Source of the DNA: a virus
Strand: one strand, 5' to 3'
Virus record (IMG/VR): IMGVR_UViG_3300009164_000039
Length of the DNA: 64,000 bases
The notes under the pieces are model-generated. The model was not told where the DNA came from. It was given only the letters and a program-made list of their open reading frames with translations, and made no database searches. The translations under genes and the position numbers were made by a program. Positions 9,001-36,034 of this stretch are shown one piece after another (position 1 is the stretch's first letter; each line of letters opens with the position of its first letter).

Positions 9001-11189
9001 TGGCCGATCCAAATGGGTTACCATACCTGGTAAAATTATCCGCTGATGGTTATTATTATCTTGATATCAATGGCAAGCCATTGTTAACCGGATATATGAT
9101 GGTTGCTGGTATACAAGGAAAGAGTTCACTGATTCCGTTCAGCGGAGTTGACGCGGCAATGCAAGGTTATGTGTACGGATACAACTATGATAGTCAAGAG
9201 ACTTATCCTTACACAGTATTCAACGAACCTACACAAGTTACTGGGCTAGGATTAGGGTATATTGGTGAACAAGTGAACGGTATAGCATTCACTGACACCA
9301 CTGACTTTGTTGTCATGGTTGGATCGGGTGGAACACTGTTGTGGAACAGTGTTGATACGGCTTACAAGATTCAAAATGGTACTGGTGTTGCTGCCGATAC
9401 AGTTGGACGCATTATTGTAAACTACCAGCCGGTGAGTTACAAAAACTTCAAGTATTTCTCTGACAGTGAATTTGAATACCCATTGAAGAGAGAAGATGTC
9501 AAACACAACTTCCAGGATATTGTGTACGATGGTGAGAAATACATTGTCACCGGCGATAGAGATATTGTGCTATGGGGATACCCAGACACTAAACCAACAG
9601 GAGACTTTGGATTAACCAGCACCACGTTCATCAACATCAATGCTAATATTGCAGCCGGTGCTACCATGACACTACGATCACAGACCAGTAATGTTACTAT
9701 ACAAACCGCTGGTGTGTTATCACGTGGAGCAAGCATAATTACCACAGCCAACTTAAATCTAGTAAACAGCAATTACATGATCACTGCAATTAATGGTAAT
9801 GCCAGTGCAGTGGTTGGAAATGTCGGCTTCACTGGAAAGTTAATTGGATCAGCTGTGTACGGCGCGGCACGTCATGACTTGGTGACATTTACTAATCCAG
9901 TTACCTCAGCATCGTTTAGTCTCAAAACTTCATTGAATAGTGCAAACGGATCAAGCACACTAAGCTTCACGGCAGCAAACTTGTTCTACCCAAATAATAC
10001 CTGTAAGATCACGACTGGCATGATTATTAGTCATGCCAATGTATCTGCAAGTATCGGAGCCTATGCATTTGTTACCAACTACGGCCCAATGGTTGAGTTT
10101 ACAAACAAAGAGCCTGCATTTACTTGGAAGTATGCACCAGGGTTTAATAGAAATCCTGATTTGGATTTTGTGTCAACTGCAATTAACAGAAATACCATTC
10201 AAATTGACCTACCACTTCAAGCTAATCTAGTGGCTGGCACAACTATCACATTCAACGACACTGCTGGTGCCGCATACAACTTTAACCTGTTGAGCAATGT
10301 TTATATTGGTAGCAACATACTGGCTTTTTCAAATCTTGCAGTGACATCAATTGTTCAATCAGGGTGGACCGTGGCCAACACTGTGTATCCTGCTATACAA
10401 CCAAACAGCAATGTAATCTCATCTGGCACTTACTTGTTCAGTGGTGTGCGCAATCGTCAATTCAAAGACATTCCTGACAATATTCCAGGTACAGAGTATG
10501 CCGGAGTCAAAGTACAAGGCAGTGAGTTTGACGATGCTATTCAACTTGATACGGTTATGTCCAGCGAGTTTGGAGATGATGCACTAGGTGTTCGCGCTGA
10601 AGATATTGTTGTTGATGGTGGTCAATTTATTGACACATATTCAAGTTTTGCACCACAGGAATTAATTCCTGGACGATTAACAGACAACTTACAGATCTCA
10701 GTGTTTACCAATAACCCTGCTAATGTGGCAGCAGTTGCTGGTTACAGAATTAGTTACAATGGCCGCGATCCTGCTACATACTATAGAATCAGCGCAGCCA
10801 ACACAACTACACTGGCTGAAGATTTGCCCTACTCGGCATTGAGTATCAAGCTAACTGATGTAAGTGGATTACCAACGCCAAGTCCGGACCAAAACAAGGC
10901 TGGTGTGTTGTTTGTAAATGGCGAGATGATCAATTACTTTACTATCAACCGAGGCAATAACACAGTTGGACAACTTCGCAGAGGTGTAAACCGTACAGGT
11001 ACACCGTTGATACATAAAGTAGGTAGCTTGGTAACGGATTCGTCTAGACTGTCTTATGTGACACAGGACGTGGCAGTTGCAATCACACAAGACTTTACAG
11101 CCAACAACATGATCAACAATGAGAGCTTGTTCCGTGCTGCGATTGACAAAGAAATTGTACAGGGTCAAACCTGGTACATTGTACCATAA
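3..11189 (+). CDS. Giant virion structural protein (baseplate/tail-associated), 5'-truncated; FG-GAP beta-propeller blades, GSG[YF] repeats
   Basis: Frame is open from position 3 (TGG TGG GTG...), so the listed GTG at 9 is not the true start. >3700 aa. Seven FG-GAP-like blades lie between about 2728 and 5730. Repeated 'I.I...GSG[YF]...P.V.I.GGGG.GA.A' units are typical of myovirus baseplate/tail proteins. Followed by fibre genes. Confidence 0.8.
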   Translation, partial: WWVARYGNAPYTGGNNVLWADLEQGYIYSGSRTGIDLRFARPGLSKLIPVDEYGLLISPEKLFPKQFNGRNLGGAFAIGDQAPAETAWRRSSDFPYAMQIALMLTNPAYYFGSLVNTHAYYRNINLDQLVVRNNKQRLTKDTVEIPNVGSNGDPVVHTSGYINWVRDFLVNRGIDPAPKIKSYLKNVNVNLSYATAGFADKNYLNVLAEQGSPTYNNESVIIPDENYEVYLHKSAPVNRAVYSAVIIEKGDNGWKVTGYDLANPYFTIVPSEAQGRSYQISVAGTGATIYRDYRSVKITVPYGHEFNSRQQVVDFLVAHGRYMVSQGFVFDTMNNDMASKQDWILSAKEFLTWSQQGWQSGNILVLSPAFNNLKVQGAMSVVDFVENRTSGSKVLDQNFQIIRNNQFSITRSDNVFTFTANFGQTIGYAEFNLVQYEHILVFDNETVFNDVIYKPAEGIRQFRFKLVGNKTGNWTGALNPPGFMYNSTTIQTWKADITYKKGDFVDVNGIVYLALIDIDATQKFEFSSSWQEVNRKDIKTGLLPNFASLAQKFENIYDVDNLPAAEDLRKFSNGLIGFRQRQFFSDFSLSDESQVKFYQGYITQKGTLDSITALTRATFNNITSEIEVFEEWAVRVGEYGALDSDQSVEVLLKESQLTDDPTTLILLDNADADVPGAVPIRTNDMYQIPVDYSKNIIPTRASYQPQITDFVTAGYVNLDDINGTIFDIQNFSELVNVLPDIGSGYKLWVAKDFSSSWNVYRVTETNNLVTSLTYNLDNFMIVGFDNPHDFVVGEVMGIKGFDTDFDGFYQVIGIDGLKSVLTIATRNIDVLKSAQTITDTGVLFRLKSVRFNLASDINNFTPPNGWKDADRVWIDNNDAINSWAVYQKANAWKTAGNLVLRPGEYTSDEGYGRAVSTNYDNTLLMVGSPLNNSGQVAKINISDPGQNYGSTVVSFSYPDRETGGIRAQGTALRESGTILQANLVTGGSGFTKIPTVIISDFSNLTSTSTRVGSPYVNVASTSTLKVLDRVTSANLANVSNTVVTEIVSTTNVRLNAATTISTGDWVRFDRGTNGNVQARLTPTSIASISIINGGSGYVTAPAIEIIGGGGTGVVANTVITAGVITACYVISNGAGFTEPPAVRVISPTISLATNLVAVLTSTSVASLEVINKGLSIESSYSGYSSNATIAITAVAGDTGVGATGNIRVSYLSIGGIEISVQGQGYLEPPSITITDLTAVGTGFAANTVLTTGVVKTFLRNKETLAYSQIDTIRAFGPDAGEFGADIKMGVYSSAIGAPGSFSDRGTVTLFQFAGGVSWNTQQILQPVSTNAGARFGESVAMSKDENWLYVGAPGINRVYAYAQKQTSLSRTTITLAGGASTYFINLPGATQTAEVSIVGDSGKVYQPGLEFSLIGSTLSFVSLAVLARDTKLFVAQQSNTTTIRCNTSITTYALSSLPESVDAITVIDSSGRIFVPQAEYYLNGQNLVFRNSAELVAVTITVRPLLTYYTLMGTIAPPETIESSAKFGASLATTEYGYQLLIGAPDASVNGVIRAGRAYAYDRNYELFQAFGNNRSFNAREALKQVTRVTVDGIAKVESVDYTKSGSTIVFDAIPDSGSLVRIDLNDFNLIQKLTPPDPVTQGRFGASVTISDDNTGLFVGSPGYNLPGYYFGSVYRYVNRGKVYGDAASTISTASILLAVGDTIRINEQHVSVGLTSGEDFINQINAIGIPGVVAANINGNVVITGDNVLTNNKLDILPSDGAVLADLGLSVYSYIQEIRHPGVGNPERFGSKIKISDNLETLVISSEQGATLKITTFDELTTTFDKTTTSLLDALKQAGAVYVYDFLSVPNDSLAQPSQFVFSQVLQNAYINARDNFGSSLDINKDVIIIGAEFNDNFGNNTGLVHIFTNPDLKKSWTVTRNRTDKVDTNHVNKIFAYDTRTQTIVAQFDYLDPVKGKILGVADQDIDYKTVDDPATYNLGAEARVNIDATGPWGDFQLGQVWWDLSTVKYIDYEQDTVSYRAINWGATFPGSSIDVYEWVSSDFLPSQYITIGGDGVPKHPADTAYVRRAYIDDATGLARVKYYFWVKNKRSITFNATRRTNSVTGIADLIANPASQDIPYVSFIQSNAFNVYNSKSLLQGDYIALHIEYSKVQNSNIVHSEFQLVQQNNPKSKIPTRVINKIVDSISGEDSVGNIVPDLRLPAAGRVGLSLRPRQTLILDNEAATKVFVSFVNSVFASYQVVGKFDLANMLDNEAIPASDSGWYHIEIDIIDQLMYIPTEQLLVGTRSTSGFRVLVDRDSTYQNFWTIYEWQGVVKGWVLIRIQSYDNSRYWSYVNWYATGYNDTVLIDTVVNTVNDISTLNLTSGQIVKVLDNGLGNYEIYEIDSTLRAIPVISEKGTIEVTADAFDVLKAKIGFDNSAFDSQGFSKNAAQELRNIFVAIYNEIFVNDLQGKTNELFFSLVNYIFTEQRSLDWILKTSFLTVAHKLRKLLQFPAFIKDNQDYYQQYIDEVKPYRSQVREYVLNYEGVDESYSKTTDFDFYSYYDKAQSARRNLDTNNADDRAVIRATNRSDWYSSYSYQIQEIVITRSGSGYTVAPAVTVTGGGGSGAKAQAILGAVGTATEGQIIGVELLNAGTGFTSTPTVEFAISSGTGVSAYARLSVPAGTVIAPNDIRNRMVRNISTKLKFDRVSYYATGVRPWISYTTYSAGQVITVNDQKTIEFANYPGDRFPGTRRAYLLNQNFLGASILNEKTLQDSTQATLLDGSYFDNANDRLMAYWQPGSTDLGTVFWSEDAMRVRESDVKTSLQSLYTRIERVAHSTLSPVSSNFAYMAVGFDGAILASVDGKHWVDANTVEISTNLRGVENYGGVYWVAVGAQATVLLSENGLDWGSFAVQSFYYSPVGSGASAQTPALGLPYGLVSENTQSSVDFTDLTTFTSTAATYAVAVGNNGTILINPFTTFTGLIPSWYSVTPQGVTSAQNTQYLRVINKATGYLADPNGLPYLVKLSADGYYYLDINGKPLLTGYMMVAGIQGKSSLIPFSGVDAAMQGYVYGYNYDSQETYPYTVFNEPTQVTGLGLGYIGEQVNGIAFTDTTDFVVMVGSGGTLLWNSVDTAYKIQNGTGVAADTVGRIIVNYQPVSYKNFKYFSDSEFEYPLKREDVKHNFQDIVYDGEKYIVTGDRDIVLWGYPDTKPTGDFGLTSTTFININANIAAGATMTLRSQTSNVTIQTAGVLSRGASIITTANLNLVNSNYMITAINGNASAVVGNVGFTGKLIGSAVYGAARHDLVTFTNPVTSASFSLKTSLNSANGSSTLSFTAANLFYPNNTCKITTGMIISHANVSASIGAYAFVTNYGPMVEFTNKEPAFTWKYAPGFNRNPDLDFVSTAINRNTIQIDLPLQANLVAGTTITFNDTAGAAYNFNLLSNVYIGSNILAFSNLAVTSIVQSGWTVANTVYPAIQPNSNVISSGTYLFSGVRNRQFKDIPDNIPGTEYAGVKVQGSEFDDAIQLDTVMSSEFGDDALGVRAEDIVVDGGQFIDTYSSFAPQELIPGRLTDNLQISVFTNNPANVAAVAGYRISYNGRDPATYYRISAANTTTLAEDLPYSALSIKLTDVSGLPTPSPDQNKAGVLFVNGEMINYFTINRGNNTVGQLRRGVNRTGTPLIHKVGSLVTDSSRLSYVTQDVAVAITQDFTANNMINNESLFRAAIDKEIVQGQTWYIVP

Positions 11190-23531: not shown

Positions 23532-24418
23532 AAACTGTAGACATTGCAGACCTAGATGTAATTTTTCTAACCTACGACGAACCTCGCAGAGAAGAGTCAT
23601 GGGCCAAAATCAAAAACATGGTACCTTGGGCCAAGCGTGTGGATGGCATAAAAGGCAGTGATGCCGCACACAAAGCCGCAGGTGCGGCCAGCGATACAGA
23701 TCGCTTTATACTAATTGACGGCGACAATATTCCTGACCCAGAGTTCTTTAACAAACAAATCACACTGGATCCACATCATGAAAGATGTGTGTTGCGTTGG
23801 AGAGCAAGAAACGCCATCAACGGACTCATGTACGGCAATGGTGGACTCAGCTCGTGGACCAAAAGTTTTGTAGAAAGCATGCGCACACACGAAGCCACTG
23901 ATGGTCGTAATGAAACACTGGTGGAGTTTTGCTTTGAACCTGACTACTGGGCCATGCATGACTGCTACTCAACCACGTATCCTAATGCCAGTCCATTTCA
24001 GGCCTGGCGAGCAGGCTTCCGTGAAGGTGTTAAAATGTGTCTGGATCGCGGAGCAAGACCCAACTTGGACGAGTTTGAAAAACGTGCCCACAATCGTAAT
24101 CTTGATCATTTGACCATTTGGCAAAGTGTGGGTGCTGATGCAGAGAATGGCTTCTGGGCCATATACGGTGCTAGACGTGGCACACAAATGACCATGCTTA
24201 CAGACTGGGATTACACCCAGGTACAAGACTTTGATGAACTGGCAAAACTTTGGACTGTGTACCAAAATGACGGCCCTGACGAATGCACTGAAGTAGGCAA
24301 CATGCTACGCAAACGCCTGGGACTTAACATTGTGGATCTAGACCCCGAACCCAGTGCATTTTTCAAACATCACTACAAGTCAAATTTTGTCAATAGAGGA
24401 ATAATGAGTCGTGAGTAA
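23528..24418 (+). CDS. Glycosyltransferase-like protein (GT2-like fold)
   Basis: 'DVIFLTYDEP...RVDGIKG...AHKAA...RFILIDGDN' with DxD; ATGA-coupled to the upstream gene. Confidence 0.6.
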   Translation: MKTVDIADLDVIFLTYDEPRREESWAKIKNMVPWAKRVDGIKGSDAAHKAAGAASDTDRFILIDGDNIPDPEFFNKQITLDPHHERCVLRWRARNAINGLMYGNGGLSSWTKSFVESMRTHEATDGRNETLVEFCFEPDYWAMHDCYSTTYPNASPFQAWRAGFREGVKMCLDRGARPNLDEFEKRAHNRNLDHLTIWQSVGADAENGFWAIYGARRGTQMTMLTDWDYTQVQDFDELAKLWTVYQNDGPDECTEVGNMLRKRLGLNIVDLDPEPSAFFKHHYKSNFVNRGIMSRE

Positions 24419-25793
24419 AAGTGATTTCATGACAGCCGCAGAACAAATGCGCCACACACTAGGCGAAGGTCTTTGCTTGGCCAAATGGAAACAGGTTAGC
24501 TTGCACTTGCCCACAGGATTGAACAATTCATGCTATCATCCTCCACTACACAAGATTCCTGTGGAACTGCTAGCAGGCAATCCTGGCGCACTGCACAATA
24601 CTCCACATAAAAAAGCTCAGCGCAAGATCATGTTGAAACATGAACGTCCAGACGAGTGTAGTTACTGCTGGTCAGCAGAAGACAATGGACAACTCAGTGA
24701 CAGGCACTACAGGTCAGGCGAGGAGTGGGCCGCAGAGGATCTTGACAAGATATTGGCCTCAACCGGAGACGAAGATGCATTACCTAGCTATGTGGAAGTT
24801 AATTTTAATCATGCTTGTAATCTTAAATGTAGCTATTGCAGTCCGCAATTTAGTTCAAGCTGGGCCGCTGAAGTTGCACAACATGGCGGATTCCCTACGT
24901 CCAGCCCTCACAATAGTCCTGAGTATTTTACTGGTAGTCGTCGCCCTATTCCTGCCCGAGAACACAACCCCTACGTTGATACCTTCTGGGAATGGTGGCC
25001 AGAGCTGTACCCCAAGCTAAGACATTTTAGAATGACAGGTGGTGAGCCACTGATGGATCACAATACCTATCGTGTGTTTGAATACGTGCTGACCTTGCCG
25101 CATCCATTGTTGCATTTGGATGTGACCAGCAACTTCAGTGTGGAGCCTGTGTTGTTTGAAAAGTATCTTGGCTATGTCAAACAGTTATGCAACACACAGA
25201 TTGAACACTTCATGCAGTATGTGAGCCTGGACACCTGGGGCAGTCAAGCAGAGTACATACGCAATGGCATGGACTTTGTGAGAGTGTGTGACTATGTGGA
25301 ACGCTATTTAGAGGAAGTACCCAATCGCAACAGCCTTACGTTTATCATGACCATGAACAATCTCAGTGTCACGGGCATGCATGACATGCTGGATTGGATA
25401 CTGGAACTACGTGCCAAGTACAGTAAAACATATCAGCGTGTGTGGTTTGACACACCGTTGCTGAGACAACCACGTTGGCAAAGCCTGCAGATACTGCCGC
25501 CTGCGTATGCCAACAGAATGAAAATAAACCTAGAGTTCATGCGAGCACACCTAATCACAGATGATAGTTTTGTGGGATTCAAAGATTATGAAATACAGCG
25601 CATGGAACGAGACATTGCCTGGATGACTGAGCCACAAGACGCACAAGAAGTCAATCATGCACGTGCTGACTTCTATAGATTCTTCAACGAACACGACCGT
25701 AGACGCGGTACTAACTTTTTACAAACATTTCCAGAGATGAGCCATTTCTGGTGGGAATGCAAACATCATGCCGAAACTGAACAACGAAACTGA
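24411..25793 (+). CDS. Radical SAM protein with N-terminal twitch/SPASM-like domain (1 of 6)
   Basis: CNLKCSYC motif; 'TGGEPL'; N-terminal 'CLAKW...SCYHP...ECSYCW'. Confidence 0.9.
   Translation: MSKSDFMTAAEQMRHTLGEGLCLAKWKQVSLHLPTGLNNSCYHPPLHKIPVELLAGNPGALHNTPHKKAQRKIMLKHERPDECSYCWSAEDNGQLSDRHYRSGEEWAAEDLDKILASTGDEDALPSYVEVNFNHACNLKCSYCSPQFSSSWAAEVAQHGGFPTSSPHNSPEYFTGSRRPIPAREHNPYVDTFWEWWPELYPKLRHFRMTGGEPLMDHNTYRVFEYVLTLPHPLLHLDVTSNFSVEPVLFEKYLGYVKQLCNTQIEHFMQYVSLDTWGSQAEYIRNGMDFVRVCDYVERYLEEVPNRNSLTFIMTMNNLSVTGMHDMLDWILELRAKYSKTYQRVWFDTPLLRQPRWQSLQILPPAYANRMKINLEFMRAHLITDDSFVGFKDYEIQRMERDIAWMTEPQDAQEVNHARADFYRFFNEHDRRRGTNFLQTFPEMSHFWWECKHHAETEQRN
24775..25020 (+). CDS. Overprinted 81-aa two-TM membrane protein (+1 frame inside radical SAM gene 1)
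   Basis: GGAG at 24765-24768, 6 nt before ATG 24775. Hydrophobic segments 'LILIMLVILNVAIAV' and 'ALTIVLSILLVVVALFL'. Local switch of the host gene to T-ending codons. Confidence 0.55.
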   Translation: MHYLAMWKLILIMLVILNVAIAVRNLVQAGPLKLHNMADSLRPALTIVLSILLVVVALFLPENTTPTLIPSGNGGQSCTPS

Positions 25794-27123
25794 TATAGAA
25801 TTCAAACGCAGAGTGATTGACATCAAGTCAACCAGCTTCTGCGGAGCCAAATGGTACAATGCTACCATATGGTTGGGTAGTGGACAAACAACCAGCTGCC
25901 ACCACCCACCTGCACACTCAATTGACTTGCAAGAAATAAAAACCAATCCTGCCGCACTGCACAATACCACTCGTAAAAAAGCTGATCGTGAAATGATGCA
26001 AAAAGGTGAACGCCCAGCAGGCTGTGAATACTGCTGGAAGATAGAAGACATGGGCCCTGAGTCTGTCAGTGACCGTGTGTACAAAACTGTAATACATTCC
26101 GAGGAGGACCTAAATGTTGCATTTGCCAGACCCAGCTACACAGACTTCAACCTTCGCACGTTGGAAATTGCGTTTGACAGAACTTGTCAGTTCGCTTGTT
26201 CTTATTGCAACCCTGCTTTTAGTAGCACATGGGTTAAGGACATTGGTAATAACGGGCCATACACAGGATTGGTATCTGACGGCAGGAACCATTTTACTCA
26301 CGCTCATGATAGTAGTCAACTGTATAAATTCAATGAAGTTAATCCGTACGTGGAAGCATTCTTCCAGTGGTGGGAAACAGATCTCCACCAGACACTAACA
26401 GAGCTTCGCATCACCGGAGGCGAGCCACTCATGTCAGGCTACACCTGGCAGCTGATTGACTGGTTCAAAGCCAATCAAGGCAAGAGCCATACCAAACTGG
26501 CCATCAACAGCAATCTTGGCATGGAGCCGGTCAAGATGCTGGATTTTATTCGGCGTGTGGAAGGTATTCCGCATCTGGAAATCTACACCAGCAACGAAGC
26601 ACTGGGCGCACAAGCAGAGTATATTCGTGACGGATTGAATTACCGGCAATGGCTCAGCAACATGGAGATGTTGATCAATTCAGGCGCAGTAAATCAAATG
26701 CATGTGATGTGTACAGTCAATGCATTGTGTCTGGAAAGCCTGCCTGAATTTTTAGATGAATTGGTTGTGTTGAAGAAAAAGTACAGCAGAGACTTTCCTA
26801 ACTTCACGTTGAACATCTTGCGTTTTCCTAGTTTTCAAAGTCCACTGGTATTACCATATGAGATTAGACAAAAGCATGCAGACCGCCTGGCACAGTTTTT
26901 GGTACGCCACAAAGGACAAAACTACTTGCATGAGCATGAGATAAACCACGTGGAACGTCTAGTAAAGTATTTGCTTGAAGTAGATACACCTCATGCAGAA
27001 GCATTTGAAATGCCTAAATTGTTGAATGACTTCCGACAGTTTTATATCCAATATGATCAGCGCCGCGGAAAAAACTTTGTAAATACATTCCCGGCTCTCA
27101 AGGATTGGTATGAAACACTCTAA
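25768..27123 (+). CDS. Radical SAM protein with N-terminal twitch-like domain (2 of 6)
   Basis: CQFACSYC; 'ITGGEPL'; N-terminal 'FCGAKW...SCHHP...GCEYCW'; close paralogue of 24411..25793. Confidence 0.9.
   Translation: MPKLNNETDIEFKRRVIDIKSTSFCGAKWYNATIWLGSGQTTSCHHPPAHSIDLQEIKTNPAALHNTTRKKADREMMQKGERPAGCEYCWKIEDMGPESVSDRVYKTVIHSEEDLNVAFARPSYTDFNLRTLEIAFDRTCQFACSYCNPAFSSTWVKDIGNNGPYTGLVSDGRNHFTHAHDSSQLYKFNEVNPYVEAFFQWWETDLHQTLTELRITGGEPLMSGYTWQLIDWFKANQGKSHTKLAINSNLGMEPVKMLDFIRRVEGIPHLEIYTSNEALGAQAEYIRDGLNYRQWLSNMEMLINSGAVNQMHVMCTVNALCLESLPEFLDELVVLKKKYSRDFPNFTLNILRFPSFQSPLVLPYEIRQKHADRLAQFLVRHKGQNYLHEHEINHVERLVKYLLEVDTPHAEAFEMPKLLNDFRQFYIQYDQRRGKNFVNTFPALKDWYETL
26114..26398 (+). CDS. Overprinted 94-aa two-TM membrane protein (+1 frame inside radical SAM gene 2)
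   Basis: GAGGAGG at 26101-26107, 6 nt before ATG 26114, which follows an in-frame TAA. TM-like 'LVSSLVLIATLLLVAHGL' and 'YLTAGTILLTLMIVVNCI'. Confidence 0.6.
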   Translation: MLHLPDPATQTSTFARWKLRLTELVSSLVLIATLLLVAHGLRTLVITGHTQDWYLTAGTILLTLMIVVNCINSMKLIRTWKHSSSGGKQISTRH

Positions 27124-28324
27124 GACATTTTGCATATTGCCATGGATACATCTTCATGCATTCCCTGATGGCCGTGCGTATCCTTGTTGTATGGGAGAAT
27201 ATCACTCACCCATTGGCGATCTTAAAACACACACAATGGAGCAGGTGTGGAATCAAGCGCCACTAGCTACCATGCGAAAGAACATGCTACAGAATGTCAA
27301 GTCCAAAGAGTGTGTCAAATGCTATGAGCTAGAAGAAAATGGTTTTGTCGGCATGCGACAAAGCATGAACCGTGCGTTTGCACATCACATGCCATTGGCA
27401 GATCAAACACTTCCTGATGGCACACTGCCTGACTTTCGACTACGCTACTATGACATTAGATTTAGTAATCTGTGTAATTTCCGTTGCCGCAGTTGTGGCA
27501 GTGTGTTTTCCAGCAACTGGTATGATGACGAAGTTGCCGCACATGGTCAAGTACAGCATCCCAAGATCATGTTTGCTGGCCAACACAAACAAGACATGTG
27601 GGAGCAAATGCAACCGCATATACCACATCTAGAACAAGTGTACTTTGCAGGCGGCGAACCCTTGATCATGGAAGAACATTATCGTGTGCTAAAAGAACTA
27701 GTACAGAGAGAAATGTTTGATGTCAGACTGGTATACAACACCAACTTTAGTGAATTAGATTTCAAAGATGAAAGTGTACTGGAGTTATGGAAACTGTTTA
27801 AGAATGTCAGCGTTGGTGCTAGTCTAGACGCCAGCGGCACACGAGCAGAGTACATTCGCAAAGGCACAGTATGGCACAAGATTGTACACAATAGAGAACG
27901 CATGTTGTCTGTGTGCCCTCAAGTTGACTTCTATATAAGTAGTACCGTGGGCATACTAAATGTATGGCACTTGCCAGACTTTCATCGTGAATGGGTTGAC
28001 TTGGGATTGATACGCCCGCAAGATTTCAACATCAACATGTTACAATCACCTGAATGGCAACGTGCAAATCATCTGTCACCGGAGTTGAAACAACAAGTGA
28101 AAGAACGCATACACAATCACCTTGAGTGGCTTGGTCCATTGGATCACATGAATCGTGCAACCAATGGTTATCGGAGTATTATAAAGTTTATTGATCAACC
28201 TGCTGATGCAGATCAACTAAAAGAGTTTTTTAGAGAAACTGATCAATTTGATCAAATACGCAATGAGAGTTTTGATGCTACCTTTCCTGAACTGACTGGA
28301 TTGAGAGACCATGCTACCAAATAA
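27110..28324 (+). CDS. Radical SAM protein with N-terminal twitch domain (3 of 6)
   Basis: 'FCILPW.H...DGRAYPCC...IGDL...ECVKC', then CNFRCRSC and 'FAGGEPL'. Confidence 0.9.
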   Translation: MKHSKTFCILPWIHLHAFPDGRAYPCCMGEYHSPIGDLKTHTMEQVWNQAPLATMRKNMLQNVKSKECVKCYELEENGFVGMRQSMNRAFAHHMPLADQTLPDGTLPDFRLRYYDIRFSNLCNFRCRSCGSVFSSNWYDDEVAAHGQVQHPKIMFAGQHKQDMWEQMQPHIPHLEQVYFAGGEPLIMEEHYRVLKELVQREMFDVRLVYNTNFSELDFKDESVLELWKLFKNVSVGASLDASGTRAEYIRKGTVWHKIVHNRERMLSVCPQVDFYISSTVGILNVWHLPDFHREWVDLGLIRPQDFNINMLQSPEWQRANHLSPELKQQVKERIHNHLEWLGPLDHMNRATNGYRSIIKFIDQPADADQLKEFFRETDQFDQIRNESFDATFPELTGLRDHATK

Positions 28325-29525
28325 CAATATATGTGTGCTACCGTGGATGAGCATAGAAGTAACCCCAATGGGTAACAGTCGCCCGTGTTGTTTGGCCATT
28401 GATGAAATACCAGACAACACTGGTAAATCCTACGACCTTACCGCAGTGCCTATTCGTGAAGTATATCACAGCAAATACATGCAGGATCTAAGGCAACAGT
28501 TTCGTGCAGGAGAAAAACCCAGCACATGCACACGATGCTGGACAGAAGAATCTGCAGGACGTACCAGCAAACGTATGAACATGTTGGCCAAATTCAACAA
28601 TGATATCCAATCAATTGAATGGGACACAGACACCCCTGAACAATTATGGTTCTTGGATCTTAAACTAGGCAACATCTGTAATCTCAAATGTCGTATCTGT
28701 GGATCCTGGAGCAGTAGTAAATGGGCACAAGAAGAACTAGACTACTACCCAACAGCCACTAGAGAAGAACGCAAAAAACATTCAGCGTATGTATGGCTAC
28801 GTCAGGGTCAGTGGCCACGTGAAAGCATTGACTTTTGGAACAACATTGATCAAGTGCTGCCTGGTGTGCGCTACTATGAATTTACCGGTGGCGAACCATT
28901 CTTGATTCAAGAACATTTTGATTTGTTACAACGCACAGTAGATCAAGGCTATGCATATCTTGTGGATGTACACTACAACACCAATGGCACACAGTATCCA
29001 GAAGCCGCAGTGGAGATGTGGAAAAAGTTCAAGCATGTGAACATTGCATTCAGCATTGACGATCTTGGCGCACGATTTGAATATCAGCGTTATGGCGCCA
29101 ACTGGGCAGAAGTGGAACAAAATCTAGACCGTTACTTAGAGTTAAGCAAAACACACACCAACATCACGCTACAAATGTGTATAACTGCAAATATACAAAA
29201 CGTATTGTACTTGCCTGAAGTCATGGACCATGTGTGGGCAAAAGGTTTTCGTGACGTATACATCAACATGTTACATGATCCAATTCAACTCAACATCAAG
29301 CAAATGACTCCAGTGGCGATTGAACTGGTATGTAACAGACTAAATCAAGTTCCGACCAGCAACAGATTCTATCGTGATTTCCAACAGTTAATAACGGTGA
29401 TACAAACAGGTACTGGTAGTGATGGTCAAGAGTTTTGCAAAACTATCAAACAAGGTGACGTGTATCGCAAACAAAATTTTGCTGACCATCACCCAGACAT
29501 AGCAAAGGCCATGGGATATGAATAA
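28311..29525 (+). CDS. Radical SAM protein with N-terminal twitch domain (4 of 6)
   Basis: 'ICVLPW...RPCC...CTRCW', then CNLKCRIC and 'FTGGEPF'. Confidence 0.9.
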   Translation: MLPNNNICVLPWMSIEVTPMGNSRPCCLAIDEIPDNTGKSYDLTAVPIREVYHSKYMQDLRQQFRAGEKPSTCTRCWTEESAGRTSKRMNMLAKFNNDIQSIEWDTDTPEQLWFLDLKLGNICNLKCRICGSWSSSKWAQEELDYYPTATREERKKHSAYVWLRQGQWPRESIDFWNNIDQVLPGVRYYEFTGGEPFLIQEHFDLLQRTVDQGYAYLVDVHYNTNGTQYPEAAVEMWKKFKHVNIAFSIDDLGARFEYQRYGANWAEVEQNLDRYLELSKTHTNITLQMCITANIQNVLYLPEVMDHVWAKGFRDVYINMLHDPIQLNIKQMTPVAIELVCNRLNQVPTSNRFYRDFQQLITVIQTGTGSDGQEFCKTIKQGDVYRKQNFADHHPDIAKAMGYE

Positions 29526-30675
29526 AGTTATCCCGTTGGTTAATGTTAGTGCATTGCAAGCCCTGACGCCCGCACCTCTTGGTCGCGCAGAGGTTGACTC
29601 TGACTACATGACACGGTATATACAAACTGGAATGGATTTTAACAAGGATCTTGGACTAGCAGGCAAATATTGTTATCACCCATTTAACACAGTCACGATA
29701 GACCATCGAGGTCGTTGCTATGTATGCACCTGTCAGGCATGGTTACCAATCAGCGTAGGTAACATTTTAGATTTTAATTCGCTGAGTGAAATTGTTCACA
29801 GCTCACGTGCTAGAGAGATACAACGAAGTATCGTAGATGGCAGTTATCGTTACTGTGACAATAAAACTTGCGGGTTATTAATCAGCGACGCAATGGAAAC
29901 TAGAATTGAGCACAAACCAGACACTGTGAATTGGATCAATTTCTGTATCGATGACAGTTGCAACTTACAGTGTCCTAGCTGTCGCACAGATTTAATATTT
30001 CATAAACAAGGTCCAGAATTTGATCTACGTATGAAAATATCACAGCATGTGAGCAAGCTGATCAGCGAACACAATCATTTTTTACGATTTACACTAAGCA
30101 ACGATGGGGATCCATTTGCTAGTCATGTGTACAGAAACCTAATGACAACTATTGCGCCACAACTGGTCAATCAGCTGGAGATTGAAATAGTAACTAACGG
30201 CATATTAATGAAGTCACATTGGCACGAAATTGAAAACATATACCCTAACCTCACACTAATCAAAGTCAGTTTTGATGCTGCCACCGAACAAACATACAAC
30301 AAAACACGATGCGGCGGCAGTTGGAACAAAGTAACTGAAAGCACTAGATTTGTAGCTGATTGGCTGGCTCAACGCAAAGCACAGCATCTCAATGCATATA
30401 CTAGATTGGTAGCTAATTTTGTAGTGCAACAAACAAACTATCATGAGATGATTGACTTTGTAACACTGTGCAATTCGTTGGGTGTTGATCAGATCTTGTT
30501 TCAAAAAGTAACTAACTGGAATACGTGGATTGATGCCAACGGCACAGATCAGTACAGCGCACATGCAGTATGGCAACAGTCGCATCCTGAATATCACAAG
30601 CTGAAAGAAATACTAAAAGATCCTGTGTTTCAACAGCACAATGTTAAACTAACTAACCTAGCGGATCTACTATGA
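29518..30675 (+). CDS. Radical SAM protein with N-terminal twitch domain (5 of 6), divergent
   Basis: 'YCYHPF...GRCYVCTC...GNIL...YCDNKTC', then CNLQCPSC; the GGE motif is replaced by 'NDGDPF'. Confidence 0.85.
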   Translation: MNKVIPLVNVSALQALTPAPLGRAEVDSDYMTRYIQTGMDFNKDLGLAGKYCYHPFNTVTIDHRGRCYVCTCQAWLPISVGNILDFNSLSEIVHSSRAREIQRSIVDGSYRYCDNKTCGLLISDAMETRIEHKPDTVNWINFCIDDSCNLQCPSCRTDLIFHKQGPEFDLRMKISQHVSKLISEHNHFLRFTLSNDGDPFASHVYRNLMTTIAPQLVNQLEIEIVTNGILMKSHWHEIENIYPNLTLIKVSFDAATEQTYNKTRCGGSWNKVTESTRFVADWLAQRKAQHLNAYTRLVANFVVQQTNYHEMIDFVTLCNSLGVDQILFQKVTNWNTWIDANGTDQYSAHAVWQQSHPEYHKLKEILKDPVFQQHNVKLTNLADLL

Positions 30676-31961
30676 ACAAACCTGATTCGTTATGCTTGGC
30701 TCCTTGGACACACACATATCTTAGTCCGCAGACTGAGCGCCGCATGTGTTGTGCAAGTCGCGAGCCTGCACAAAACTTTCAACAGTATATTGACACCAGC
30801 GCCGGTTCTGGCAAGTATATACCTATCACTCTGGACGAACATTGGAACGGTGACCACATGCGCTCCGTACGAAAACGCATGCTGTCCGGCGAAACATTAC
30901 CCGAGTGCGAAGTATGTAATGATAAACTGTTGAATACCTCTGTGTATAGAGATTACTTCACGCACTTGTTTGCACACAAACTTGACCAAGTACATGCCAG
31001 TACAGATGACACCGGGCACACTACAATGCAACCGATCAGCTGGGACTATAGATTTAGTAATCTTTGTAATTTCAAATGTCGCATGTGTGGAGACATGTTG
31101 AGCAGTGCATGGGAAAGCGAGCAACGTGTACATGGCATGATAGATTGGAACAATCCAAAGAACAACTGGATGAAGCCAGTCATACGCGATGAAATACATC
31201 AGTTTCAAACCACGCAGGTTGAACATGAGTTCAGTCAGGCAGTTGAAGAACATCGTGTTGAGGAGATATATTGGGTGGGTGGCGAACCCTTGATGTACGA
31301 ACAACATTGGAAGTACATGAAAAGAATAATTGAATTAGGGGACGGACCAAATGTCTATGCAAGATATAATACAAATCTCAGCCGTGTTGATTATCGCGGT
31401 GTCAATCTTTATCGGGATATTTTATCTGGGTTACGGGATTGGCAAATCTGCGCATCGCTCGACGGAACAGGTAAAATTGGTGAGTACATTAGATCAGGTC
31501 TCGACTTCGATGCTTGGCTTGAGAACTTCGCTCAAGGAGTTGCGATTGCGACTAATCCTAGACAGATGCGAATCGACTACACCCTTACCCTGCCAGGAAT
31601 GTTTGAGGTTGAACGGATTGAACGACTGTCCGCAACCTACGGAGTACAAGTTCTGGCGAAGGTAGTTTTTAGTTTCAGTCCGGACATAGTTATGTCACCT
31701 TTAGCCCTACCTCGGGACATGTTACACTCTTGGGTAGATGAAATACTTTCTGTGGTGAAGACCGACTCGTTAAAGGATATCTTGGTTCAGCTGAAAACTA
31801 GACCTACGTTTGCGGAACAGTGGCCCGACCAATATCAAACAGCACTGCGCCGTGGTAAAGACCGTGTGTTGAAATTAGAAAGCATACGAGACAATCCTAT
31901 CACAATGGCAGAGATATTGAGTGAACGATCGGATGTATTGCACTGGTGGAATAACATATGA
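30672..31961 (+). CDS. Radical SAM protein with N-terminal twitch domain (6 of 6)
   Basis: 'LCLAPW.H...RRMCC...ECEVC', then CNFKCRMC and 'WVGGEPL'. Confidence 0.9.
   Translation: MNKPDSLCLAPWTHTYLSPQTERRMCCASREPAQNFQQYIDTSAGSGKYIPITLDEHWNGDHMRSVRKRMLSGETLPECEVCNDKLLNTSVYRDYFTHLFAHKLDQVHASTDDTGHTTMQPISWDYRFSNLCNFKCRMCGDMLSSAWESEQRVHGMIDWNNPKNNWMKPVIRDEIHQFQTTQVEHEFSQAVEEHRVEEIYWVGGEPLMYEQHWKYMKRIIELGDGPNVYARYNTNLSRVDYRGVNLYRDILSGLRDWQICASLDGTGKIGEYIRSGLDFDAWLENFAQGVAIATNPRQMRIDYTLTLPGMFEVERIERLSATYGVQVLAKVVFSFSPDIVMSPLALPRDMLHSWVDEILSVVKTDSLKDILVQLKTRPTFAEQWPDQYQTALRRGKDRVLKLESIRDNPITMAEILSERSDVLHWWNNI
31351..31665 (+). CDS. Overprinted 104-aa TM + coiled-coil protein (+1 frame inside radical SAM gene 6), i-spanin-like architecture
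   Basis: AGGGGA about 8-9 nt before ATG 31351. N-terminal TM 'ISAVLIIAVSIFIGIFYLGYGIG'. 4-3 heptad L43/L47/V50/M54/L57/L61/L64/L68. Four Cys in the tail. Confidence 0.55.
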   Translation: MSMQDIIQISAVLIIAVSIFIGIFYLGYGIGKSAHRSTEQVKLVSTLDQVSTSMLGLRTSLKELRLRLILDRCESTTPLPCQECLRLNGLNDCPQPTEYKFWRR

Positions 31962-32719
31962 TATTATTAAGTTCTGGCGATAGCTTTACATATGGCAACG
32001 AGCTCAGTGATGACAACCCTGCACGTGCTAGTAACAACACATGGTCGGCGAACCTAGCAAAACATTTTGGGTTTGAGCACCAGTGTGTGGCCAAAGGCGG
32101 CGCCGGCAACGACTATATTTCTAGATCACTCATAACACAGGCCAATGAACTTCGTAAAAAAAGCAAACAGTTTGCAGTAGCGGTAATGTGGACCTATCCT
32201 GGACGCATTGAATTAAAAGTTCAGTCCGAGTGGCACCAACTAAACGATTATGTATTTTGGGATTCGACTGAAAAACTACAAGCACAGTGGCCCGATAAAG
32301 GTGAAAAATTTTATGCATCAATACTAGACAGAATTCAAAAAGACCGAGAAGCAAATCGATTGGATTTGTTCAGAGACTATATGAAATTTACGGTGTTAAC
32401 TGGTGACTATGCAATAGTAAAATCTTATCAAAGTATATTTGTTACCGCACAATATCTAATGCATCATGAAATTCCTTTCTTTTTTGTAAATGCAGTTGAC
32501 GAGGCAAACATCACTGGAAATTACATACCTCAGGACAGTTTGCCTTACCTGGACAGCATTGACCAGCAAGACTGGATGCCTGTTCCTAGTTTCTATTCCT
32601 GGGCAAAAGAAAATAATTATAAATTTGGGTCAGCACACCCATTGGATCGAGCACACACAGATTACGCTAAACTGATACTAGCTACAGGATTGGTAGAAAC
32701 AAAATGGCAATTAAAGTAG
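31958..32719 (+). CDS. SGNH/GDSL-like hydrolase or acyltransferase
   Basis: Block I 'SGDSFTYG', block II 'AKGGAGN', C-terminal 'HP...H'. Confidence 0.6.
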   Translation: MILLSSGDSFTYGNELSDDNPARASNNTWSANLAKHFGFEHQCVAKGGAGNDYISRSLITQANELRKKSKQFAVAVMWTYPGRIELKVQSEWHQLNDYVFWDSTEKLQAQWPDKGEKFYASILDRIQKDREANRLDLFRDYMKFTVLTGDYAIVKSYQSIFVTAQYLMHHEIPFFFVNAVDEANITGNYIPQDSLPYLDSIDQQDWMPVPSFYSWAKENNYKFGSAHPLDRAHTDYAKLILATGLVETKWQLK

Positions 32720-33798
32720 TATTACGAAACCCATTGGATCAGCAAGATCTAATAGACTATGACATTGTGCCCGATGACACATTGTTGGCACATGACTGGC
32801 AACAGGCACTAAAAGAACTGTTAGTGCAAGGTCGCATGCTGGAAAAGAACTTTTGTTTTCTCGGCTTTCCTGGCACTGCACGTACACTTGATTACATCTG
32901 CAAAGAATTAAACGAATGCGTGTACGATGTCAATGCTATGGATTGGCAGTCAGTTGGACTTGCACCGTATATAATTGAAGAGTGGTTCACACCTGACTCA
33001 GTTAGATTTGGTTTAGAATATCCCTGTGAGCTAACCGATACCAGCCTAGGATTATCAGTCAAACACGAAGTAATGAACAAACTGCACAATCATTTTGAGA
33101 GACTTCAAGGCACTGTATGGTCACCTAGTGAGTATTATACTCAGGCCACTCCAACTGTTAAGTATGCAATTAGACAACTCAACACACTGTGCCATGAAAT
33201 TGAATCTCTGGTGCTGAGCCAACGCAAGGCATATCGTTTGCCAGAATGGGTACGCCCAAGCCAAATTACTACGTTTATCAGCGCACCAAGATACGATCTT
33301 AAAGATCGGCATCGTGAAGGATTTGTTACCAATGGATATGACAGAAAATTTGGACATGTGTACATGCACTGGGCACAAATTGGCAAAACACTGTTTGAAG
33401 TATTTCGTGATGAGCATGCACCAGAACTAACTGATACTGTATGTGAAGCAATCACTCAATTGAAATACTATTCCGGTGAATTTGACATTGAATGGGGACG
33501 AGATGTAGTACGTACAGGCGACTTTCCGTGGCACGTGGAAGAACAGGATCGTTTTGAAAAATGGTTGATACAAAACAACATAGATCCAAAAAATCCTGCA
33601 ATGAGCTCAGGATATTTGCCATTGGGACAGGTAGAATTACAACAGAGTTTTGGCACAACCGATATTGGCACCATTTGGCAAATACTCAGCACACACCTGG
33701 ATATATACAGTATCGAGGTAGACGGAGTTGTTCAAACATATGATTACTGTTGGAGCGATACTGACTACAAGCAGTCGCAGATCAGGAGACTACTATGA
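32704..33798 (+). CDS. Hypothetical protein (364 aa)
   Basis: Long ORF coupled to both neighbours; no motif recognised. Confidence 0.75.
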   Translation: MAIKVVLRNPLDQQDLIDYDIVPDDTLLAHDWQQALKELLVQGRMLEKNFCFLGFPGTARTLDYICKELNECVYDVNAMDWQSVGLAPYIIEEWFTPDSVRFGLEYPCELTDTSLGLSVKHEVMNKLHNHFERLQGTVWSPSEYYTQATPTVKYAIRQLNTLCHEIESLVLSQRKAYRLPEWVRPSQITTFISAPRYDLKDRHREGFVTNGYDRKFGHVYMHWAQIGKTLFEVFRDEHAPELTDTVCEAITQLKYYSGEFDIEWGRDVVRTGDFPWHVEEQDRFEKWLIQNNIDPKNPAMSSGYLPLGQVELQQSFGTTDIGTIWQILSTHLDIYSIEVDGVVQTYDYCWSDTDYKQSQIRRLL

Positions 33799-34587: not shown

Positions 34588-36034
34588 TGCCGCACTAGCG
34601 GTAATTGACAAGCATGGGGACATTGTATTTGCTGGACACAGTGAGCGTTACAGCAAAATCAAACACGACAAAAATTTATCGCCAGGCTTGATTGCCGAAG
34701 TATGCAAATTTGATATACATGAAATAGCATATTATGAACGTCCTTGGGCACAACAGTTGCGTAGATTGTACACCGGCGAAGGAGTAGAGTGGAACAAGCT
34801 CACAGTCCGGCAGATATTAAAAAAACAAATTAACGAGTTCAGTGCATTCTCTGGACCAGTAGTAGCATATCCGCATCATCTGAGTCATGCGGCAGCAGGA
34901 TTTCAAACAAGCCCATTTACCCGTGCCACAGTGGTTGTGATAGACGCTGTAGGTGAATGGGACACAATAACCATCTGGGGCGCAGAATACGATCGCAATG
35001 GACACGCACAGTACAAGAAGTTATGGCAACAAGGTTACCCGCATAGTATAGGATTGTTCTACAGTGCAATGACCCAGCGAGTAGGGTTGAAGCCCCTGGA
35101 CGAAGAATACATTTTGATGGGCATGGCAGCGTATGGTGAGCGTGGCTTTGGTGACCTATTAAAAATGGACATGATAGAATCAGAATTTGACATTCGATTC
35201 AAACACAATCTACACACTGGTATAGATAAAAAATATCTAGCCTACATCAGTGACTTTGATATAGCTGCCGGCGCACAAGATCTTGTGGAAACACTCATAC
35301 TCAATGTTATGCTACGTGCTAAGAAGTTTGGGTGGAGTAGCAATCTGGTGTACGGTGGAGGTGTTGCGCTCAACTGTGCCGCCAATAGATTTTTAGGAGA
35401 ATATTTTGATAACATTTGGATTATGCCTTGTCCTGGTGATGCTGGTTCTAGTCTGGGGGCCGCCGCTGTTAGTTTCCGTGGTTGTATTAATTGGACTGAT
35501 GCTTGTCTTGGGCATGATATACCTGGCGACTATCCTGTTAATGATGCCGTGGCTGCTCTTTTGCGTGGTGATATTATTGGTGTGGCGAGCGGTCGAGCCG
35601 AGTTCGGCCCGAGAGCGTTGGGAAACAGAAGTCTCCTCGCAGACCCAAGAGGAACAGAAATCAAAGACAAAGTAAATGAAATCAAACGTAGACAAAAGTT
35701 TAGACCCTTTGCACCCGTTGTATTGGAAGAGATGGCTGATCAGTATTTTACTATGCCTCGCGGGTGGGATCGCAGTCGGTACATGCAGTCAGTCGCTGAC
35801 TGTAGGCATCCTGAGTTATTTCCTGCTATTGTTCACGCTGACGGAACTAGTCGTGTTCAGACCGTACCGAAAGATGGAAGCGGAATTAGAGAGCTCCTTG
35901 AAAAATGGTTCGTGTTAACTGATTGTCCTATGTTGCTAAACACCAGCCTAAACATACGTGGCGAACCTATGGTCAATGATCGTGCTGACGCAGACCGCTT
36001 TGAAAAGTTATATGGCATAAAGGTCTACAGTTAA
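34553..36034 (+). CDS. O-carbamoyltransferase, NodU/CmcH/TobZ family
   Basis: 'GFHDAA', 'HHLSHAA', 'VIDAVGE', 'EYILMGMAAYG', 'GRAEFGPRALGNRSLLADP', 'FRPFAP', 'HADGTSRVQTV', 'LLNTSLN'. Confidence 0.95.
   Translation: MSILGIAAGFHDAALAVIDKHGDIVFAGHSERYSKIKHDKNLSPGLIAEVCKFDIHEIAYYERPWAQQLRRLYTGEGVEWNKLTVRQILKKQINEFSAFSGPVVAYPHHLSHAAAGFQTSPFTRATVVVIDAVGEWDTITIWGAEYDRNGHAQYKKLWQQGYPHSIGLFYSAMTQRVGLKPLDEEYILMGMAAYGERGFGDLLKMDMIESEFDIRFKHNLHTGIDKKYLAYISDFDIAAGAQDLVETLILNVMLRAKKFGWSSNLVYGGGVALNCAANRFLGEYFDNIWIMPCPGDAGSSLGAAAVSFRGCINWTDACLGHDIPGDYPVNDAVAALLRGDIIGVASGRAEFGPRALGNRSLLADPRGTEIKDKVNEIKRRQKFRPFAPVVLEEMADQYFTMPRGWDRSRYMQSVADCRHPELFPAIVHADGTSRVQTVPKDGSGIRELLEKWFVLTDCPMLLNTSLNIRGEPMVNDRADADRFEKLYGIKVYS
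35406..35675 (+). CDS. Overprinted 89-aa multi-TM protein (+1 frame inside the carbamoyltransferase), holin-like architecture
   Basis: AGGAGA at 35395-35400, 5 nt before TTG 35406. First 60 residues contain no charged amino acid; charged C-terminal tail. Confidence 0.6.
   Translation: MITFGLCLVLVMLVLVWGPPLLVSVVVLIGLMLVLGMIYLATILLMMPWLLFCVVILLVWRAVEPSSARERWETEVSSQTQEEQKSKTK
35676..35918 (+). CDS. Overprinted 80-aa two-TM protein coupled to 35406..35675
   Basis: TAA (35673-35675) is directly followed by ATG (35676). TM-like 'WLISILLCLAGGIAVG' and 'LTVGILSYFLLLFTLTELVVF'. Confidence 0.5.
   Translation: MKSNVDKSLDPLHPLYWKRWLISILLCLAGGIAVGTCSQSLTVGILSYFLLLFTLTELVVFRPYRKMEAELESSLKNGSC

Follow-up and report, generated by a model that had tools for sequence, protein, structure and literature searches.

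The window analysed here, by which we mean the whole 64,000-nucleotide (nt) stretch of the IMG/VR virus record IMGVR_UViG_3300009164_000039, carries on its plus strand, at 30672-31961, a radical S-adenosylmethionine (SAM) gene, hereafter the host gene, inside which a second open reading frame (ORF) is wholly nested. The host gene (frame 0, 429 amino acids (aa)) encodes a protein with an N-terminal twitch/SPASM-like domain (NCBIfam NF033640, N_Twi_rSAM), matched with an E-value of 2.9e-85 and 286.7 bits against a cut-off of 170, and the Pfam families Radical_SAM and SPASM were matched as well. The nested ORF, which is the subject of this work, occupies 31351-31665 of the same strand in the +1 frame, starts with ATG, and encodes 104 aa plus a stop codon, its codon position 1 falling on host position 2 and its codon position 2 on host position 3.

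The nested frame is closed upstream by a TAG stop codon (31336-31338) overlapping a Shine-Dalgarno (SD)-like AGGGGA (31337-31342), which lies 8 nt before the ATG; together, the two elements span 31336-31342 on the plus strand, on which all the parts described below are also located. Residues 6-31 (31366-31443) form a predicted transmembrane (TM) helix that is uncharged and reaches a maximum Kyte-Doolittle 19-residue mean of 2.73, and over these positions 54% of the host third codon positions are T, compared to ~30% elsewhere. The helix is followed by a basic/polar juxtamembrane segment (residues 32-37, 31444-31461; K/R32, then S/A/Q/S/T) and by an amphipathic helix, predicted to be cytoplasmic (residues 38-72, 31462-31566), with hydrophobic residues at the a/d heptad positions 43, 47, 50, 54, 57, 61, 64, and 68, which in the window copy make up the unbroken 4-3 series L43, L47, V50, M54, L57, L61, L64, and L68. 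A variable tail (residues 73-104, 31567-31662) contains four Cys (C73, C81, C84, and C93). In the AF2 monomer, helices were predicted at residues 3-34 and 40-75. The initial annotation of this DNA had pointed out the ORF, its uncharged residues 6-31, the heptad from L43 to L68, and the four Cys, and all of these were confirmed in the sequence.

It had also been argued there that a chance alternative frame is unlikely to combine a TM helix with a heptad. For one sequence alone, this argument is weak: the window contains 31 alternative-frame sense ORFs of at least 60 aa, 27 of them in the +1 frame, and eight of the 31 have a TM-like stretch, six of these eight being located inside one 11.6-kb enzyme cluster. 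The comparison of homologues, on the other hand, gave results far beyond chance. The alternative to be weighed against them is that the nested ORF is not a gene, its hydrophobic frame having been left open by chance, by pyrimidine-rich third positions, or by shared ancestry. The frequency of TM-like +1 ORFs in the window lends it some support, as does the fact that a T at host position 3 automatically leads to a hydrophobic, stop-free +1 frame; moreover, many nested residues, namely G31, K/R32 (host W-Q-I codons), G56, and C84 (host Met-Phe), are forced by the host protein. We nevertheless consider this explanation very unlikely, for the reasons given in the following paragraphs.

Orthologues of the host gene were found on several hundred viral contigs with 68-80% aa identity (at least 599 IMG/VR matches), and a database search gave 8000 hits for it. 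For the comparison, 80 IMG/VR orthologues (69-79% aa identity) were used together with 18 more and with 74 loci from bacterial and archaeal genome bins; a second IMG/VR scan, with a 68%-identical query, mostly led back to the same contigs. The number of stops expected in the +1 frame was obtained by resampling synonymous codons on each sequence's own protein with the pooled codon usage. The nested frame was intact in about 90 diverged relatives. In 81 orthologues of ~73% aa identity, the first 72 nested codons contained 0.25 +1 stops per sequence, compared to 3.65 expected; over the whole ORF, 213 stops were observed when 582 +/- 18 were expected, whereas the rest of the host gene contained 1648 versus 1579 expected. 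The ratio of observed to expected stops fell to 0.006-0.05 in 35-codon windows at host columns 230-255, while the lowest ratio in the controls, which were adequately covered windows of five neighbouring genes and of the +2 frame, was ~0.6. Leu, Ile, and Val codons standing before a purine were almost only NTT or NTC, and three columns were devoid of stops where 34, 35, and 29 were expected. Stops were at or above expectation just upstream of the ORF (35/81 and 52/81) and just downstream of it, and its boundaries are therefore sharp.

Neither of the two stricter null models accounted for this depletion. When the region's own codon usage was taken as the null, 135 stops were expected and 20 observed, and a within-column permutation of codons for the same amino acid gave 65 +/- 3.8 stops, the observed 20 being ~12 standard deviations away. 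Host column 256 illustrates the effect: all six Leu codons are used in this column, with NTA only before T or C, NTG never before A, and CTT or CTC before A 20 times. The depletion of stops is thus not an effect of base composition. Neither is it due to phylogenetic inertia. Outside the ORF, synonymous codon diversity was ~0.9 of the pooled expectation, and synonymous sites are therefore near saturation; inside host columns 220-295, it was 0.70-0.80. Furthermore, the +1 frame stays open in homologues whose regional identity is at least 72%, whereas outgroups with 40-72% regional identity (n = 8) had 3-8 stops in the homologous 72 codons, with a mean of 5.25, and those below 40% (n = 59) had a mean of 3.5, only four of the 59 being free of stops over these 72 codons. 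The nested ORF was absent, with 3-10 stops in its place, from nearly all of the 67 more distant N_Twi_rSAM homologues. Since these outgroups encode a similar host protein and are full of stops, the host protein alone does not force an open +1 frame, and the open frame represents a trait derived in a single phage orthogroup. The phylogenetic range of the nested ORF is accordingly narrower than that of the host gene, as it is present in the phage orthogroup with 68-80% identity.

The start site of the nested ORF is also reflected in the choice of host codons. The family consensus upstream of the start is (T/C)TAGGAGAT-N-ATG, i.e., AGGAG-N9-ATG. The AT of the ATG is part of a host Asn codon, which was AAT in 51 cases and AAC in none (p 1e-11), the Gly codon of the SD sequence was GGA or GGG in 70 of 75 homologues (93%, versus 43% expected; p 2e-20), and the Leu codon preceding this Gly was NTA in 52 of 79 (66%, versus 39% expected; p 1e-6). 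Neither the AAT preference nor the bias for GGR, which together create the start site, is a pyrimidine effect. A site of the style (T/C)AGGAG-N6-9-ATG was found before 17 of the 51 annotated genes of the window, compared to a background of 5%. Sequences lacking an ATG at codon 1 usually have one at codon 3 or -3 instead. In lineages L118, L140, L141, and L157, AGGAG is absent (the Gly codon being GGT or GGC), as is the ATG, and the frame is broken at codons 9-17, which looks like a correlated loss or a primary absence of the nested gene. As is expected of an overprinted gene, the nested ORF has start signals of its own that are maintained by selection.

These start signals also bear on the idea of a programmed +1 frameshift, by which ~226 residues of the enzyme would be fused to a hydrophobic tail and anchored in the membrane. 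Two predicted proteins of a public protein library, P0123 (309 aa) and P0139 (148 aa), are exactly such fusions of the N-terminal radical SAM half with the membrane protein of the nested frame; P0123 jumps over ~14 codons, from one (K/R)YM repeat to another. Each was found on a single contig, and an indel, an assembly error, or a natural fusion variant may lie behind it. In most homologues, moreover, a +1 stop is present ~4-10 codons upstream of the nested start, at or above expectation, and the conserved SD sequence and ATG point to initiation. A frameshift is therefore a highly improbable origin of the signal.

Selection was also detected at the level of the nested protein. The maximum hydropathy within the first 40 nested residues had a mean of 2.44, compared to 1.35 under synonymous resampling, and residues 6-28 contained 0.58 charged or stop residues, compared to 3.57 under resampling. 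At nested residues 4, 9, 15, 19, 23, 24, and 26, T is preferred over C at the host third position, which gives I, L, or F and not T, P, or S, whereas at residues 33, 36, 37, and 38, the preference is for C over T, giving S, P, S, and T and not F, L, L, and M. In the heptad helix, T is preferred at residues 43, 54, 57, 64, and 68, i.e., at five of the eight heptad positions, where it leads to L or M, and C is preferred at residues 59, 60, and 66, where it leads to T or S. This T/C bias runs in both directions and is specific for the position, and a regional base bias can therefore not explain the pattern, which again argues against an ORF that is not a gene. The excess of identity in the nested frame was restricted to residues 1 to ~63. 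The frame was open over at least 54 codons in 79 of the 81 orthologues, over at least 72 codons in 70, and over at least 96 codons in 56; about one relative in three has an ORF that stops at 54-72 aa. According to the family alignment, the conserved core consists of the membrane helix, a G-K/R-S juxtamembrane motif, and ~25-40 residues of helix. The architecture proposed in the initial annotation was thus borne out for the TM helix and the heptad helix that follows it, both of which are kept by selection, and not for the four Cys, which were present at their respective tail positions in 29, 27, 28, and 9 of 66 sequences (<45%).

A constraint acting on the nucleic acid, such as an RNA structure, an internal promoter, or a recombination hotspot, could also lower synonymous diversity, which is indeed reduced across 31326-31539. 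Analysis of 20 diverse sequences with RNAalifold did not reveal a conserved structure (3 pairs, -0.94 kcal/mol, no compensatory change), and the signal follows the codon periodicity of the +1 frame and the properties of the encoded amino acids, so that this possibility deserves next to no credence. Two other regions of the host gene, 30924-31011 and 31824-31908, showed a synonymous diversity ratio of 0.72-0.78 and a raised +1-frame identity, and stops were not depleted there.

Taken together, these results make it likely that the nested ORF is a real overprinted gene: an ancestor of this phage group would have acquired it in the +1 frame of its N-twitch radical SAM gene, and selection would have preserved it from then on. 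Its product is most likely a small bitopic inner-membrane protein of 54-104 aa, to judge from the predicted helix and the lengths over which the frame is open. Several observations weigh against this conclusion or limit its extent. The C-terminal third of the ORF appears to be unconstrained, the identity excess of 0.02-0.04 in the tail being at background level; stops over residues 73-104 amounted to 0.89 per sequence, compared to 2.15 expected. The ORF is missing in lineages L063, L078, L118, L140, L141, and L157, and the nested gene is therefore dispensable; in these lineages, and in L174 as well, the nested frame is broken early. The overall synonymous constraint is modest, with a ratio of about 0.75. 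The sequences compared are related and the p-values are nominal, which is mitigated by the saturation of synonymous sites and by the outgroup controls. The AF2 monomer is of low confidence (pLDDT 60), translation of the ORF is deduced from codon-choice statistics, and the topology described below from the positive-inside rule, with charges that are largely dictated by the host frame. Finally, any role proposed for the protein is a guess, since no homologue of known function was found.

The orientation of the protein in the membrane was predicted from its charges. No K or R was present in residues 1-5 in any of the 66 sequences, K or R was found at residue 32, after the helix, in all 66, and a mean of 2 K/R occurred within the 15 residues following the helix. 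From the positive-inside rule, an N-out/C-in topology is predicted, which would place the heptad helix in the cytoplasm. Given the host frame, K or R is impossible at nested residues 2, 3, and 5. The topology determinants would thus largely be by-products of the host frame, and the new gene seems to have made use of a sequence that was already suited to it.

This topology bears directly on the label of inner-membrane spanin (i-spanin) given in the initial annotation because of the Rz-like architecture. According to this explanation, the nested product would be a type II protein with a periplasmic, Cys-dimerised coiled coil, which would act with an outer-membrane lipoprotein partner in the fusion of the membranes at lysis. 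i-spanins are N-in/C-out (class II) proteins with a periplasmic helical domain and are disulfide-linked, and their outer-membrane partner (o-spanin) has a lipobox and is encoded within, overlapping, or near the i-spanin gene, usually in the lysis cassette (PMC6139136). The window copy, with its N-terminal membrane helix, heptad helix, and Cys, recalls such a protein, and spanin genes are known for their nested architectures (PMC6139136). However, the N-out/C-in topology predicted in 66/66 sequences is the opposite of that of Rz (PMC6139136). No lipobox ORF was found in or near 30672-32800, and the few relaxed hits elsewhere were nested junk; the same scan recovered the o-spanins of L084 and L085, which served as positive controls. 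No lysis PHROG was detected among the 47 ORFs scanned in the 64-kb window, and the nested protein did not match any spanin family. Each of the tail Cys is present in only 9-29 of the 66 sequences, and the part following the helix is reduced to ~25 aa in the shortest members and to 40 aa in the 72-aa forms. Lastly, the relatives have an endolysin/i-spanin/o-spanin cassette of their own, which in G001 is separated from the radical SAM locus by more than 50 kb.

This cassette was recognised in near-complete jumbo phages carrying the same radical SAM gene and nested gene, four out of five of which encode a GH19 endolysin (PF00182; phrog_181 E 2e-76). In the five jumbo relatives, no match was obtained with PF00959, PF01464, PF01510, PF13539, or the Rz family PF03245; PF05838 was without a match in these five and in all the control genomes as well, and its absence is thus uninformative. 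At the three endolysin loci examined, the endolysin gene is followed by a gene encoding a protein of 153-203 aa that has membrane helices at its N-terminus and gave weak hits to Rz-like PHROGs, and a long charged helical C-terminal segment was present in both Rz-like proteins whose sequences were read. These candidate cassettes, each with the GH19 endolysin first and the Rz-like protein next, are located at L084:1204-2936 (+), L085:773-2049 (-), and L086:1381-2470 (+). A lipobox ORF accompanies two of the three, being adjacent in L084 ('LTAC', phrog_456 1.5e-7) and embedded in the +1 frame in L085 ('LSAC'). A second lipoprotein (LTGC) was observed in L084. The set formed by the GH19 endolysin, the Rz-like protein, and the lipobox ORF is probably the true lysis cassette of the related jumbo phages.

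An i-spanin function of the nested product is, in our opinion, scarcely tenable, and the spanin label was abandoned: an N-out/C-in topology is predicted, no lipoprotein partner is encoded nearby, and a conventional cassette exists elsewhere in relatives. The initial annotation had itself reported that no lipobox-bearing o-spanin ORF was to be seen nearby, in agreement with our lipobox scan of the gene and its surroundings. Among the outcomes that it had listed as speaking against a spanin, a coiled coil predicted in the cytoplasm and a conventional spanin pair elsewhere (here, in related jumbo phages) were both found; a lack of conservation, also listed, was not, the ORF being conserved.

The nested protein could also be related to holins, antiholins, or viroporins and form an inner-membrane oligomer that sets the timing of lysis or dissipates the membrane potential. 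It is small and has one membrane helix; its C-terminal side is charged, its heptad helix could drive self-association, and the M1-x-M3 arrangement found in 30 of the 66 sequences recalls the dual starts of holins. However, its gene is not located beside the endolysin gene in the relatives examined, no match to a holin family was obtained, and residue 2 is S, F, or L, i.e., uncharged, unlike that of lambda S107. The loss of the ORF in several lineages also speaks against such a protein, which we regard as quite unlikely.

Database searches with the nested protein did not reveal a free-standing homologue: the 39 library hits with E <= 0.001 corresponded to short ORFs, two frame-fusion products, and repeat matches. 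In L081, the one distant member whose locus was retrieved, the ORF was still nested. The family searches gave only sub-threshold matches, for which the hydrophobic helix was responsible (Pfam DUF1372, E 0.023; phrog_3671, E 0.0095), the match to NCBIfam twin_helix reached 16.8 bits for a cut-off of 49, nothing was reported by PADLOC, and the best score of an ESM Atlas search was 0.75, which is below a useful level. A PDB profile search retrieved only polyubiquitin repeat chains, with no stretch passing alone, and these were taken as spurious.

For the overprinted gene, the following course of events is the most likely one. As the codon-choice statistics indicate, ribosomes would start inside the enzyme mRNA at the conserved AGGAG-N9-AUG and synthesise a protein composed of a 5-residue acidic or neutral N-tail, the membrane helix at residues 6-31, and a basic juxtamembrane residue, followed in most lineages by the heptad-patterned amphipathic helix at residues 38-72. 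By the positive-inside rule, this protein would insert into the membrane in the N-out/C-in orientation, as do the Pf3 coat protein and phiX174 E, with the amphipathic helix facing the cytoplasm. Because the conserved core is made of the membrane helix and ~25 residues, the protein would exert its activity in or at the inner membrane, possibly by binding another membrane protein or by self-association.

Provided that the gene is real, the foremost of several candidate roles, though less likely than not, is that of an accessory acting at the membrane for the glycan-tailoring operon in which it is located; an effector that targets the host membrane and has no connection with this pathway is nearly as probable, and a role in lysis timing or a holin-like role is unlikely. 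A bolder proposal, to which we give little weight, is that ~5 coordinated overprinted membrane peptides in the glycan-tailoring genes of widespread freshwater jumbo phages constitute a membrane module that organises the pathway at the inner membrane or, in the manner of phiX174 E, uses its membrane helices to bind host lipid-carrier enzymes and so diverts envelope precursors into the phage pathway. If true, several genes of a large dsDNA phage would contain a second layer of coding, for which genome compression is not an obvious driver. A RiPP-like substrate of the radical SAM enzymes was considered and rejected: the peptide has no division into leader and core, what is conserved in it is a membrane helix, and the enzyme family occurs in sugar-handling operons.

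The host gene is the last of a tandem run of N-twitch radical SAM genes (24411-31961). Other genes of the window encode a carbamoyltransferase, aminotransferases, an epimerase, ThyA, DHFR, QueD/QueE-like proteins, and tail-fibre-like proteins. A giant ORF on the plus strand (3-11189, at least 3728 aa), which runs off the 5' end of the window, is located upstream of the tail-fibre-like genes. Further TM-like +1 ORFs, at 24775-25020, 26114-26398, 35406-35675, and 35676-35918, were seen in the carbamoyltransferase gene and in two more of the radical SAM genes. Compared with the nested ORF, they occupy other positions in other genes and mostly encode peptides with two helices and no heptad tail. 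Another +1-frame ORF (27372-27632, +; 86 aa, hydropathy 2.63) was observed inside the radical SAM gene at 27110-28324, for which the alignment of homologues was gappy.

The DNA comes from a large uncultured phage belonging to a group of freshwater large and jumbo phages. Near-identical DNA was present in freshwater metagenomes, and relatives were found on viral contigs of up to 374 kb. The reads of four freshwater DNA runs gave fragmentary contigs with too few clean differences for a comparison at the population level. In the phage GenBank collection, the host gene had no blastn match, and only a chance match (E = 8) was obtained by tblastn with the nested protein. Five contigs (L167-L171) with a phage-type radical SAM gene and the nested ORF had been binned in metagenome-assembled genomes (MAGs) named Lishizhenia, Haliscomenobacter, Chitinophagaceae, and Polynucleobacter. 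They are probably phage DNA inside host bins, and the names of these MAGs give a weak hint of hosts among the Bacteroidota or Betaproteobacteria.

The nested gene adds a new case to the known phenomenon of viral overprinting, here in an enzyme gene of jumbo dsDNA phages. Genome annotation pipelines discard ORFs that are nested in other genes, and to our knowledge hardly any overlapping gene other than Rz1 has been described in large dsDNA phages. The comparative signature is a clean one, which combines avoidance of stops by covariation of neighbouring codons, maintenance of a start by synonymous choice, selection at the amino-acid level, and outgroups as negative controls. For a group of phages that have been seen in metagenomes only, the result provides a new and widespread family of small membrane proteins; it also replaces the spanin label, attractive but wrong, and locates the probable real spanin pair of these phages. 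Together with the TM-like +1 ORFs in other enzyme genes of the operon, it suggests that overprinting can add a hidden layer of membrane proteins to an enzyme operon. Mutations that are synonymous in the host gene could remove the nested gene only, which offers a cheap experimental handle.

Several known systems share features with the nested protein. Small bitopic N-out/C-in proteins, such as the Pf3 coat protein, M2-type viroporins, and the bacterial small membrane-protein regulators AcrZ and MgrB, resemble it, with no homology, in that a single helix is preceded by a short N-tail without charge or with acidic residues and followed by positive charge, and in influenza M2, the membrane helix is followed by an amphipathic cytoplasmic helix. 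In lambda, Rz1 is embedded in the +1 frame of Rz. As in this pair, we are dealing with a +1-frame gene nested in a dsDNA phage and with an envelope protein, and the combination of a helix and a heptad gives the product a superficial likeness to Rz. Unlike in Rz/Rz1, the nested protein is the one bearing the helix, the host gene encodes a cytoplasmic enzyme, and the predicted topology is the opposite of that of Rz; there is also no lipoprotein partner, the locus lies outside the lysis cassette, and the Cys are not conserved.

By analogy, the architecture of the nested protein appears closest to that of phiX174 E. In the 91-aa E protein, the activity resides in an N-terminal membrane helix, which is followed by a cytoplasmic domain (PMC5039524), and its gene is overprinted in the +1 frame of the scaffolding gene D (PMC8227390). 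The two proteins differ in that they have no sequence similarity and that Pro is not conserved in the helix of the nested protein (at most 8 of 66 sequences), whereas E needs P21. Unlike phiX174, the phage studied here is a large dsDNA phage whose relatives have their own endolysin and spanins. The likeness to E lies in the +1-frame location of a small gene entirely within a gene that is older and conserved, and in a product with an N-terminal helix and a cytoplasmic tail, as predicted here.

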